NCBI RefSeq assembly: GCF_041248615.1
Contig: NZ_CP158426.1
Direction: 5' to 3' (one strand)
DNA length: 64,000 nucleotides
DNA from: Escherichia coli
GTDB taxonomy: Bacteria > Pseudomonadota > Gammaproteobacteria > Enterobacterales > Enterobacteriaceae
Positions within the stretch are counted from its first letter, which is position 1. Every line of letters starts with the position of its first letter. The notes under the pieces were generated by a model, which saw only the letters and a program-made list of their open reading frames with translations, made no database searches and was not told where the DNA came from. The position numbers were made by a program, and so were the translations under genes. Of this stretch, positions 44,715 through 49,903 are shown piece after piece.

Positions 44715-44754
44715 TTCCCCTTAATCCAGCAAACATAAAAGCCAACCTTAAGAA

Positions 44755-44771
44755 CTTAAGGTTGGCTTAAT
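44755..44771 (+). promoter_or_regulatory. PmrA (BasR) box CTTAAG-N5-CTTAAT upstream of eptA
   Basis: cttaag gttgg cttaat read directly 47-63 bp upstream of eptA ATG; first half-site lies inside the palindrome aagccaaccttaagaacttaaggttggctt (44739-44768), which could also act as the adiC terminator. Confidence 0.65.
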
Positions 44772-47135: not shown

Positions 47136-48227
47136 ATGCGTTTTCTGCGCCGACCAATATCGCTGCGCCAACGGCTGATATTGACCATCGGGGCCATTTT
47201 GTTGGTGTTTGAGCTGATCAGCGTCTTCTGGCTATGGCATGAAAGTACCGAGCAGATTCAGCTGTTTGAGCAGGCGCTACGCGACAATCGCAACAACGAT
47301 CGCCACATCATGCGTGAGATCCGCGAGGCGGTCGCCAGCCTGATCGTCCCCGGCGTCTTTATGGTCAGCCTGACTCTATTTATCTGCTATCAGGCGGTAC
47401 GCCGCATCACCCGGCCGCTGGCGGAGCTGCAAAAAGAGCTGGAAGCGCGCACCGCCGACAACTTAACGCCTATTGCCATTCACAGCGCCACCCTCGAAAT
47501 CGAAGCGGTGGTTTCGGCGTTGAACGATCTGGTCAGTCGCCTGACCAGCACGCTGGATAACGAAAGGTTGTTTACTGCTGACGTCGCGCACGAACTGCGA
47601 ACGCCACTGGCGGGGGTGCGTTTGCATCTGGAACTGCTGGCGAAAACGCATCACATTGATGTAGCACCGTTAGTGGCACGGCTTGATCAGATGATGGAGA
47701 GCGTCTCCCAGCTGCTGCAACTGGCGCGTGCCGGACAGTCATTTTCTTCCGGGAATTATCAACATGTAAAACTGCTGGAAGATGTCATTCTCCCCTCGTA
47801 TGACGAACTCAGTACCATGCTCGACCAGCGACAGCAAACCCTGCTATTGCCAGAGAGCGCCGCCGACATCACCGTTCAGGGTGATGCAACCCTGCTGCGG
47901 ATGTTATTGCGAAACCTGGTAGAAAACGCCCATCGTTACAGCCCGCAAGGCAGCAACATTATGATTAAGCTGCAAGAAGATGGCGGAGCGGTCATGGCCG
48001 TTGAAGATGAAGGACCGGGTATTGATGAGAGTAAATGCGGGGAGTTGAGTAAAGCGTTTGTACGTATGGACAGCCGTTATGGCGGGATTGGTCTGGGGTT
48101 AAGTATTGTCAGCCGCATTACACAGTTGCATCACGGGCAGTTTTTCCTGCAAAACCGGCAAGAGACTTCCGGCACGCGGGCCTGGGTACGGCTGAAGAAA
48201 GATCAGTACGTGGTAAACCAGATATAA
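47136..48227 (+). CDS. basS: Sensor histidine kinase BasS (PmrB)
   Basis: ORF 47127..48227 (track starts at TTG); ATG at 47136 gives a 363-aa kinase (MRFLRRPISLRQRLILTIGAILLVFELISV…). Confidence 0.9.
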   Translation: MRFLRRPISLRQRLILTIGAILLVFELISVFWLWHESTEQIQLFEQALRDNRNNDRHIMREIREAVASLIVPGVFMVSLTLFICYQAVRRITRPLAELQKELEARTADNLTPIAIHSATLEIEAVVSALNDLVSRLTSTLDNERLFTADVAHELRTPLAGVRLHLELLAKTHHIDVAPLVARLDQMMESVSQLLQLARAGQSFSSGNYQHVKLLEDVILPSYDELSTMLDQRQQTLLLPESAADITVQGDATLLRMLLRNLVENAHRYSPQGSNIMIKLQEDGGAVMAVEDEGPGIDESKCGELSKAFVRMDSRYGGIGLGLSIVSRITQLHHGQFFLQNRQETSGTRAWVRLKKDQYVVNQI

Positions 48228-48292
48228 AGAAAGCTGCTGACCACCAGCACGCTGAACACGGTAGTTAAACTTTCATAAACACGGTTTTTCAT
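48203..48292 (-). CDS. pmrR: Small membrane protein PmrR (29 aa), antisense-overlapping the 3' end of basS
   Basis: Hand translation of minus strand from ATG 48292: MKNRVYESLTTVFSVLVVSSFLYIWFTTY*; preceded by GGAGGAGAG and a PmrA box; not in ORF track. Confidence 0.75.
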   Translation of the reverse strand: MKNRVYESLTTVFSVLVVSSFLYIWFTTY

Positions 48293-48336
48293 TGCACTCT
48301 CCTCCGTTAACCTGGAGGAGAGTATGCGCGTCAGAG

Positions 48337-48353
48337 ATTAAGTGAACCTTAAG
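48337..48353 (-). promoter_or_regulatory. PmrA (BasR) box CTTAAG-N5-CTTAAT upstream of pmrR
   Basis: Reverse complement of 48337-48353 reads cttaag gttca cttaat, the same motif as upstream of eptA; 45-60 bp upstream of pmrR ATG. Confidence 0.6.
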
Positions 48354-48400
48354 ACTTCAATTGGCCTGATAAGACAGCGTCTCAGGCCATCCGTTTCAGC

Positions 48401-49903
48401 TTATTCATCAATTCGCGGATGTTGCTGCACCAGGCGGGTACGTTTCGCCTGCAAATCGGCAATCTCGTGGTCAATATCATCGATTTTCTGCTCGATATTA
48501 TCGTAATGCTCGACGAGAATTTCCTTCGCTTCCTGTATATCTGACGCCGCCGGTGTCGCACCTTTCAACGGACGATTTGCCGTCTCTTTCATGGTTACGC
48601 CGGTGATTAAACCAACCACCGCCACTACCATCAGGTAATAGGCAGGCATCATCAGATTCTGCGAGCTTTCGACCAGCCAGGCCGCCAGTGTTGGCGTCAG
48701 ACCGGCAACCAGCACCGAAATATTAAATGCCGCCGCCAGCGCGCTGTATCGGATATGCGTCGGGAACATCGCTGGCAAGGTAGAAGCCATAACGCCCGTA
48801 AAGCAGTTAAGGATCACCGCCAGCATCAGTAACCCGGCAAAAATCAGGCCGATGACGTTACTGTTAATCAGAATAAACGCCGGGATCGCCAACACAAACA
48901 GTGCAACACTACCAAGTAGCACAAACGGACGACGGCCAAAACGGTCACTCAGCAAGCCCATCACCGGCTGGACAAACAGCATACCGATCATAATGGCGAT
49001 AATAATCAGCACCCCGTGGTCTTCGGAGTAATGCAGGTTATGCGACAAATAACTCGGCATATAGGTCAGCAACATGTAGTAAGTCACGTTGGTGGCAATT
49101 ACCAGACCAATACACGTCAACAGGCTGCGCCAGTGTTTGGTGGCAATCTCTTTAAACGAGACTTTCGGGCCATCCTGCAAACCTTCGCGGTCGCCCTGTT
49201 CCAGTTTATCAACATGCTGCTGGAACGCCGGAGTCTCTTCCAGCGCATGGCGCAGGTAAAGCCCGATAATCCCTAACGGCAGAGCAATAAAGAACGGAAT
49301 ACGCCAGCCCCAGTCGAGGAAGTTCGCTTCGCCGACAATGGTCGAAATTAACACCACCACGCCCGCACCCAGCACAAACCCGGCAATAGAACCGAAGTCC
49401 AGCCAGCTGCCCATAAAGCCACGTTTACGGTCAGGGGAGTATTCCGCAACAAATATCGACGCCCCGGTATATTCACCGCCGACCGAGAACCCTTGTGCCA
49501 TCTTACAGATCAACAGCAGAATCGGTGCCCAAATACCAATCGTGTCGTAGGACGGTATTAAGCCAATACAGAAGGTACTGATCGACATAATCACAATAGT
49601 GATAGCGAGGATCTTCTGGCGACCATATTTATCGCCCAACATACCAAAGAAGAGTCCGCCAAGCGGTCGAATCAGAAAGGGAACGGAGAAAGTGGCAAGT
49701 GCAGCAACCATCTGCACGCTGGGGTCAGCCCCCGGGAAAAAAACTTTACCTAATGCGTAAGCAACAAAACCATAAACACCAAAATCGAACCATTCCATTG
49801 CATTACCCAGTGATGCTGCGGTAATGGCTTTACGCAGTTTACCGTCATCAATAATAGTGACATCACGAAGGGTAATTGGTTTTACTTTTTTCCTTTTCAG
49901 CAT
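48401..49903 (-). CDS. proP: Proline/glycine-betaine:H+ symporter ProP (osmosensing MFS transporter)
   Basis: ORF 48401..49936; 500-aa protein from ATG 49903 (MLKRKKVKPITLRDVTIIDDGKLRK…) with C-terminal coiled-coil tail. Confidence 0.95.
   Translation of the reverse strand: MLKRKKVKPITLRDVTIIDDGKLRKAITAASLGNAMEWFDFGVYGFVAYALGKVFFPGADPSVQMVAALATFSVPFLIRPLGGLFFGMLGDKYGRQKILAITIVIMSISTFCIGLIPSYDTIGIWAPILLLICKMAQGFSVGGEYTGASIFVAEYSPDRKRGFMGSWLDFGSIAGFVLGAGVVVLISTIVGEANFLDWGWRIPFFIALPLGIIGLYLRHALEETPAFQQHVDKLEQGDREGLQDGPKVSFKEIATKHWRSLLTCIGLVIATNVTYYMLLTYMPSYLSHNLHYSEDHGVLIIIAIMIGMLFVQPVMGLLSDRFGRRPFVLLGSVALFVLAIPAFILINSNVIGLIFAGLLMLAVILNCFTGVMASTLPAMFPTHIRYSALAAAFNISVLVAGLTPTLAAWLVESSQNLMMPAYYLMVVAVVGLITGVTMKETANRPLKGATPAASDIQEAKEILVEHYDNIEQKIDDIDHEIADLQAKRTRLVQQHPRIDE

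Follow-up and report, generated by a model that had tools for sequence, protein, structure and literature searches.

The hairpin over the pmrR Shine-Dalgarno sequence is probably a proP 3′ UTR structure that is absent from the PmrA-driven pmrR messenger

The locus considered here lies in a 64,000-nucleotide stretch of Escherichia coli DNA (NCBI RefSeq assembly GCF_041248615.1, contig NZ_CP158426.1; hereafter "the window", to which all positions refer unless stated otherwise), in which the eptA-basR-basS operon on the plus strand converges with proP on the minus strand. Between the two, on the minus strand, sits the small gene pmrR, whose Shine-Dalgarno (SD) sequence forms the 3′ arm of a perfect 9-bp hairpin. 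Our analysis suggests that this hairpin is probably a structure of the proP 3′ untranslated region (3′ UTR) that silences pmrR, and that it is missing from pmrR's own messenger, made under the control of PmrA. Since pmrR has already been described together with its regulator and function, the gain lies in mechanistic detail, not in a new system; a hairpin serving as anti-SD in a manner tied to the origin of the transcript was not described in the pmrR literature that we found.

An earlier reading of the window, made from the sequence alone (the sequence-only reading), had noted a 29-codon open reading frame (ORF) overlapping the end of basS, the hairpin and a PmrA box ahead of it, and the end of proP. 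All of these elements were found at the positions it gave (Table 1). The same reading had described the ribosome-binding site as fully paired, and the stem does cover the entire SD, whose GGAGG lies 8 nt 5′ of the AUG. The hairpin at 48297-48322 (minus strand) folds with an energy of -19.9 kcal/mol (z = -4.4), a value matched by none of 200 shuffled sequences. A perfect 9-bp hairpin is not remarkable in itself, since the window holds about 13 distinct ones where shuffles would lead one to expect about 2 registers; it is the placement over the SD, together with the conservation described below, that exceeds chance. Folding predictions set apart the RNAs that could carry pmrR. In RNAs starting at or upstream of 48325 the SD has an unpaired probability of 0.00, and in predicted folds of proP-derived RNA CUCUCCUCC pairs with GGAGGAGAG, leaving the ribosome-binding site closed. 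For an RNA that starts at 48313, the unpaired probability within its first 41 nt is 0.77. RNA folding had been put forward as a check on the sequence-only reading: it upheld the stable stem over the SD, but for the 5′-most 41 nt of an RNA beginning at 48313 it left the SD largely open.

Orthologous loci were collected in three ways. A peptide-pattern scan of genome contigs yielded 7 loci, from Escherichia species, C. amalonaticus and C. braakii; PmrB homologues and the contigs around them led to Salmonella, Intestinirhabdus alba, C. rodentium, E. fergusonii and C. sedlakii; and a DNA pattern that placed no constraint on the 5′ arm retrieved 11 metagenome contigs. The collection amounts to 19 distinct box-to-ATG sequences. 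Two loci with a 68%-identical PmrB (L013 and L014) were left out, as they have no adjacent pmrR or proP. At 20 of 20 loci proP is the immediate upstream neighbour of pmrR on the same strand, the gene order being conserved, and the distance from the proP stop to the PmrA box ranges from 2 to 155 nt. It measures 2 nt in four Citrobacter-like metagenome contigs, 5 nt in I. alba, 6 nt in C. sedlakii, 19-23 nt in E. fergusonii, C. braakii and Salmonella, and 47-155 nt where REP elements have been inserted (E. coli, C. rodentium). In many species the stop lies only 2-23 nt from the box. Transcription of proP must therefore cross the pmrR promoter, making both arms on its way, and in many species nothing can stop it earlier.

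Entry of upstream transcription into pmrR, for which the adjacency of proP already speaks, is further supported by transcript-end data from E. coli K-12. For cells grown in LB to an OD of 2.0, Term-seq identified an RNA 3′ end at K-12 position 4332116 (plus strand of that genome; 1708.6 reads on average in sheet LB 2.0; PMC7815308, supplementary file 1), which falls on the first base of the pmrR start codon. Searches of the supplement returned no other 3′ end between the proP stop and beyond pmrR (PMC7815308). Coverage extends past pmrR to a region of Rho-dependent termination at K-12 position 4332468 (plus strand; score 8.58, significance 2.7e-37; PMC7815308, supplementary file 2). There, coverage drops from 248 upstream to 32 downstream, whereas in the presence of bicyclomycin (BCM), a Rho inhibitor, the two values are 400 and 443 (PMC7815308). 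No U-tract follows the stem, the next bases being UGCAAUGAAAAACC, and a terminator scan made no call at this position. These two findings and the continuation of transcription to the Rho site rule out a canonical intrinsic terminator. The suggestion that the hairpin might serve as the proP terminator thus holds in part: it marks a 3′ end, but termination itself probably occurs by way of Rho some 350 nt farther on. The only terminator-like call, inside the pmrR ORF (48249-48235), was rejected, its T-run consisting of Phe and Leu codons.

The same observations raise the alternative that the stem is only a 3′ stabiliser or terminator of proP mRNA, and that its overlap with the SD is opportunistic (a stem being easily formed beside a purine-rich SD), with no selected masking. 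An RNA 3′ end 5 nt past the stem would fit such a role, as would the many species that have no other structure between proP and the stem, and it is C. rodentium, with an extra upstream REP/BIME, that has the weakest stem (two G·U pairs). Against it stand the missing U-tract and terminator call, and the retention of the stem in E. coli despite a REP hairpin after proP. Moreover, the Rho-sensitive transcription downstream means that RNAs with the whole pmrR ORF exist, so that masking the SD has a consequence. We regard a role confined to proP as unlikely, although it deserves some weight.

The second half of the proposal, that the hairpin is absent from pmrR's own messenger, turns on where PmrA-dependent transcription starts. 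The PmrA box had been claimed by the sequence-only reading; it is an exact match, one of only 2 in the window (the other being at the eptA promoter), and deletion of the box shows it to be functional in E. coli (PMC8129183). In PmrA-dependent promoters the box replaces the -35 element, and in the cryo-electron microscopy (cryo-EM) activation complex it extends from about -37 to -21 (PMC10570014). Exactly 10 nt past the pmrR box, in 19 of 19 sequences, stands a hexamer with A2 and T6, the most important -10 bases, and the sequence of the spacer drifts. The arnB promoter of E. coli has the same layout (box, 10 nt, and TAAAAT, an unambiguous -10), as does the eptA promoter in the window (box, 10 nt, GAGCAT). 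The pmrR hexamer shares its last two bases with the start of the 5′ arm. Counting 7-8 nt on from this -10 places the start at 48314 or 48313, and setting the end of the box at -21 places it at 48316. In most species the loop opens with a purine that follows a pyrimidine, although its other bases vary. From these relations we infer a start between 48312 and 48316. PmrA-made pmrR mRNA should then lack the anti-SD arm, retaining at most 3 of its 9 bases, because the expected start lies at the end of that arm.

A scan of 48100-48500 for stand-alone sigma-70 promoters found none, as expected for an activator-dependent promoter. The second half-site of the box, CTTAAT, was considered as a PmrA-independent -10, which would have brought the complete hairpin into the RNA, but was rejected, since the sole -35-like hexamer is 12 nt away. 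Entries for pmrR, proP or their coordinates were absent from the supplements of Cappable-seq, SMRT-Cappable-seq, Salmonella macrophage RNA-seq and Salmonella ChIP-exo studies.

The sequence-only reading had assumed a start near 48325 and, with it, translational control of the PmrA-dependent mRNA. This part of it found no support: the conserved CANACT and the use of the box as -35 would put the start farther downstream, and a start at 48325, being only 12 nt from the box, would leave no room for a -10. The corresponding alternative is that the mRNA begins upstream of the 5′ arm and carries the whole hairpin, its translation being gated by opening of the stem through temperature, a protein or a small RNA (sRNA). 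A very stable and conserved stem lying fully over the SD would suit this possibility. So would the observation that PmrR dosage seems to matter, deletion and overexpression of pmrR both impairing growth (PMC11429745). The Rfam family STnc630 (RF02052) matches the locus at 183.1 bits against a gathering threshold of 55, over the full model (48196-48361, minus strand). Its consensus structure already includes the hairpin, and the model, which comprises PmrA box, hairpin and entire ORF, starts upstream of the box; its 5′ boundary takes in promoter DNA and is therefore not a mapped 5′ end. What argues against gating is the arrangement of the promoter. The 5′ arm starts 15 nt past the box and is overlapped by the conserved -10-like hexamer, the box takes the -35 position (PMC10570014), the -10 of arnB and that of eptA likewise come 10 nt after the box, and the variable spacer holds no conserved alternative -10. 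A gated PmrA-dependent messenger is, in our judgment, distinctly improbable.

Conservation across the 19 sequences indicates the strand on which the hairpin acts. The distance from box to ATG is 63-64 nt throughout, and standard pairing is kept in 171 of 171 pair cells (100%). Variation is distributed unevenly: 8 of 10 columns vary in the spacer and 8 of 8 in the loop (whose length ranges from 6 to 8 nt), compared to 0 of 9 in the SD arm and 1 of 6 in the -10-like hexamer, where only the third base changes (CA[T/A/C]ACT). In the part of the 5′ arm outside the hexamer 4 of 7 columns vary, and by C-to-T changes only. These represent at least five independent C-to-U events (one each in the C. amalonaticus clade, C. 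sedlakii and I. alba, and two in C. rodentium). Each of them produces a G·U pair in RNA of the proP/pmrR sense and a C·A mismatch on the basS strand; T-to-C changes or transversions in the 5′ arm were not seen among the 19 sequences. The sense stem keeps an energy between -13.9 and -19.7 kcal/mol throughout the 19 sequences; in the variant lineages the antisense stem is weakened to between -7.9 and -14.1 kcal/mol. By a rough estimate one third of random substitutions in the 5′ arm would preserve pairing, giving a probability of about 0.005 for five out of five by chance. So low a value argues for selection of the hairpin as an RNA on the minus strand, as far as the substitution pattern can tell.

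That the inverted repeat acts on the other strand or on both, as a stem or terminator in the basS (pmrB) 3′ UTR or as a bidirectional basS-proP terminator, is highly improbable: the arms are symmetric in E. coli, the plus strand folds equally well (-18.1 kcal/mol), and colistin resistance mediated by pmrB requires sequence between +86 and +126 downstream of the gene, with stem-loops predicted there (PMC8004244), but the substitutions weaken or break the plus-strand stem in four lineages while keeping the minus-strand stem, no A-tract or U-tract flanks the repeat (the two grounds on which a bidirectional terminator of the convergent genes was ruled out), the only end that the supplement searches returned at K-12 43320xx-43323xx was the plus-strand end at 4332116, with none fitting the basS mRNA end, and the +103 threshold falls at the pmrR -10 and the +126 threshold at the limit of the PmrA box, which is more simply accounted for by pmrR expression.

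The colistin data merit a closer look. In the subcloning study, 86 bp of DNA downstream of pmrB conferred no resistance, 103 bp gave partial resistance and 126 bp or more gave full resistance; the authors predicted stem-loops downstream of pmrB and raised pmrR as a possibility (PMC8004244). Transposed to the window, +86 corresponds to 48313, so that the fragment cuts the hairpin and removes the -10. The fragment ending at +103 (48330) has the hairpin and the -10 without the box, and +126 (48353) coincides exactly with the distal boundary of the PmrA box. The window differs from K-12 by a 3-bp indel, but this is located farther from pmrB, in the REP element, and leaves the thresholds in place. 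A functional pmrR promoter would appear to explain them more simply than a structure in the pmrB 3′ UTR.

The events at the locus might be pictured as follows. Polymerases that have transcribed proP would cross the pmrR promoter and ORF, producing both arms, and Rho would end this transcription about 350 nt past the stem, inside antisense basS. The stable stem would then block trimming by 3′-to-5′ exonucleases, leaving an end 5 nt beyond it. With its ribosome-binding site closed, such RNA would yield no PmrR when proP is transcribed in response to osmotic conditions or in stationary phase, the latter being when the RpoS-dependent proP P2 promoter is active; being untranslated, the read-through RNA would also be left open to Rho. 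When PmrA is active, polymerase would use the box as a surrogate -35 and CATACT as -10, starting at about 48313, and the ensuing mRNA would have a leader of about 21 nt with a strong, free and well-spaced SD and would be translated. The -10 and discriminator of the promoter would thus double as anti-SD, and synthesis of PmrR would depend on the promoter from which the RNA originated.

A wider version of this scheme is put forward more tentatively, the physiological weight of SD masking entering it as a supposition. The locus may operate as a switch set by transcript origin, the same ORF being silent on proP RNA and translatable on PmrA RNA. Silencing might license Rho to act before transcription goes far into antisense basS, and might insulate PmrA/PmrB and the remodelling of lipid A from the osmotic and stationary-phase control of proP. 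A weaker candidate possibility is that the stem is a binding site for ProQ. This RNA chaperone, which binds 3′ UTRs, was first found as an effector of proP, and such a site would provide the long-missing RNA link between ProQ and proP.

Table 1. Features of the proP-pmrR-basS region, with window coordinates (from the PmrA box to pmrR, minus-strand elements are given in the order of transcription).
Feature	Position	Strand	Remarks
PmrA (BasR) box, CTTAAGGTTCACTTAAT	48353-48337	-	Exact match; conserved in all orthologues
Box-to-hexamer spacer	48336-48327	-	10 nt
Predicted -10 hexamer, CATACT	48326-48321	-	Family pattern CANACT; A2 and T6 invariant; putative function
Anti-SD 5′ arm, CTCTCCTCC	48322-48314	-	Doubles as end of the -10 and discriminator of the predicted pmrR promoter
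Predicted PmrA-dependent start zone	48312-48316	-	Best guess 48313, from -10 and box position; leader about 21 nt
Hairpin loop, AGGTTAAC	48313-48306	-	8 nt; first base (A, 48313) is the best candidate for the PmrA-dependent +1
Shine-Dalgarno sequence / 3′ arm, GGAGGAGAG	48305-48297	-	Invariant in 19/19 distinct orthologous sequences
SD-to-ATG spacer	48296-48293	-	4 nt; ATG at 48292-48290
pmrR ORF, MKNRVYESLTTVFSVLVVSSFLYIWFTTY	48203-48292	-	29 codons and stop; small membrane protein modulating LpxT
Mapped RNA 3′ end	48292	-	First base (A) of the pmrR start codon, 5 nt beyond the stem; interpreted as proP mRNA 3′ end
Rho-dependent termination region	~47900-47980 (~47940)	-	Antisense inside basS, about 350 nt past the stem
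REP-like hairpin, GGCCTGA...TCAGGCC	48363-48388	-	Just past the proP stop
proP	48401-49903	-	Upstream gene on the same strand; stop codon ends at 48401; transcripts enter the hairpin

Several points weigh against the interpretation of the hairpin as a proP 3′ UTR structure absent from the PmrA-made messenger. The key step, the position of the start site, is derived from promoter geometry and stays correspondingly provisional. When the stretch immediately ahead of pmrR was placed in a transcriptional reporter, it gave no significant response to low Mg (PMC11429745). The Term-seq end is backed by few reads and was recorded under only one of the three growth conditions (PMC7815308). Two-sided compensatory covariation was absent among the 19 sequences: the SD arm being invariant, a shuffle control was uninformative, and the case draws on conservation and on wobble-only substitutions that go back to few events. 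Lastly, an open SD in the PmrA-made mRNA does not appear guaranteed in folding models: with longer 3′ extensions of the short transcript, the SD pairs weakly with a pyrimidine run past the pmrR stop. This run (CUGAUCUUUCUUC, 48183-48200, minus strand) is basS coding sequence on the opposite strand. In full-length short transcripts it lowers the unpaired probability of the SD to 0.11, a value that depends on transcript length, which is why we distrust the pairing.

The closest parallel that we can name is the fold-back inhibition that keeps IS10 and IS50 transposase from being translated on read-through transcripts, reportedly described by Davis, Simons and Kleckner in 1985, by Krebs and Reznikoff in 1986 and by Schulz and Reznikoff in 1991. 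In both cases an inverted repeat has a 3′ arm that covers translation start signals. In the insertion sequences the element's own promoter starts inside the repeat, so that only RNA coming from outside forms the stem; for pmrR the equivalent start is the predicted one. The pmrR case differs in that the gene is a chromosomal one for a small protein instead of a transposase, that the outside transcription comes from a defined neighbour, proP, that the 5′ arm corresponds to the predicted -10 and discriminator of an activator-dependent promoter, and that the stem also marks the 3′ end of the neighbour's mRNA. This last property calls to mind a second group of structures. Stem-loops define the processed 3′ ends of Rho-terminated E. 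coli mRNAs, and REP-type elements act as 3′ stabilisers. The pmrR hairpin shares with them a GC-rich stem lacking a U-tract, a 3′ end a few nt past its base and Rho termination downstream, but it is made of the next gene's SD and promoter and thereby has a second consequence, for that gene. With a canonical intrinsic terminator it has in common the GC-rich hairpin and a nearby 3′ end, and differs by the missing U-tract and the onward transcription.

PmrR tunes the phosphorylation of lipid A and through it resistance to polymyxin and bile, and too little or too much of the protein harms growth. If the proposed mechanism is true, it explains how a gene wedged in the tail of an unrelated and strongly regulated transporter gene stays under PmrA control, and pmrR becomes a compact chromosomal example of promoter DNA doubling as anti-SD. 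It would also explain why the region was filed in Rfam as an sRNA. STnc630, so typed, appears to be composed of pmrR promoter DNA and a protein-coding mRNA and not to be a non-coding RNA; a full-text literature search for STnc630 matched no paper.

The identification of the ORF as pmrR, already made in the sequence-only reading, is borne out by RefSeq annotation (including K-12 b4703) and by NCBIfam NF033224 (PmrR equivalog, LpxT activity modulator), which scores 73.9 bits against a cutoff of 30 over residues 1-29 of 29; precomputed hits also name PF28106 for PmrR. The window gene matches its counterparts in Salmonella and in E. coli (b4703) in encoding the same 29-aa membrane peptide, in the upstream PmrA box, in its position between proP and pmrB and in its overlap with the 3′ end of pmrB. 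It is itself no different from known pmrR, apart from residue 27: the window PmrR ends in ...WFTTY (Thr27; codon 48210-48212, minus strand), compared to ...WFATY (Ala27) in the other aligned E. coli, K-12 included. Deletion of the PmrA box at pmrR makes the pmrA-constitutive E. coli strain WD101 polymyxin-sensitive in an lpxT-dependent manner, and deletion of lpxT reverses the effect (PMC8129183). These genetics are consistent with binding and inhibition of LpxT by PmrR, a function taken from the literature and predicted for the copy in the window. The growth phenotypes of PmrR are LpxT-independent, and in low Mg ribosome reads at the PmrR start site rise 5-fold (PMC11429745).

On the opposite strand, basS ends at 48227, so that the pmrR ORF shares its last 25 bp. 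The overlap varies among relatives. In I. alba (L015/L017, 2280-2414) a 44-nt gap separates pmrR from pmrB, with no overlap, and because of this gap overlap with the kinase gene is not a fixed feature of the pmrR family, whereas the hairpin and the adjacency of proP are. In E. fergusonii (L018, 2278-2428) PmrB is called as a 380-aa protein with a C-terminal extension running about 66 nt over pmrR, and pmrR is left uncalled in that assembly although ORF, hairpin and box are intact. Transcription of the proP/pmrR strand runs about 290 nt antisense into basS before Rho acts and could affect basS expression.

Of 5426 complete E. coli genomes, 5408 carry the 81-nt region at an identity of 95% or more. 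Identity of at least 99% over 48280-48360 is reached in only 470 of the 5408, and the aligned sequences show a G/C change at 48355, outside the box. The REP-like hairpin past the proP stop carries a 3-bp (TGT) deletion relative to three other aligned E. coli, including K-12. It is missing from Salmonella, Intestinirhabdus and several Citrobacter, those in which the proP stop precedes the box by 2-23 nt, and in C. rodentium (L016, 2430-2590) it has expanded into a REP/BIME cluster with a duplicated 3′ fragment of proP.

Elsewhere in the window, the plus strand has a perfect 13-bp palindrome (44740-44771), AGCCAACCTTAAG-aa-CTTAAGGTTGGCT, with TAATTTTGCTTTG coming next. The 3′ arm of the palindrome constitutes the first part of the eptA PmrA box, CTTAAGGTTGGCTTAAT (44755-44771), and the whole looks like an intrinsic terminator of the upstream gene on the same strand fused to a PmrA box. 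It parallels the proP/pmrR arrangement in that the 3′ hairpin of an upstream gene overlaps a PmrA-dependent promoter.

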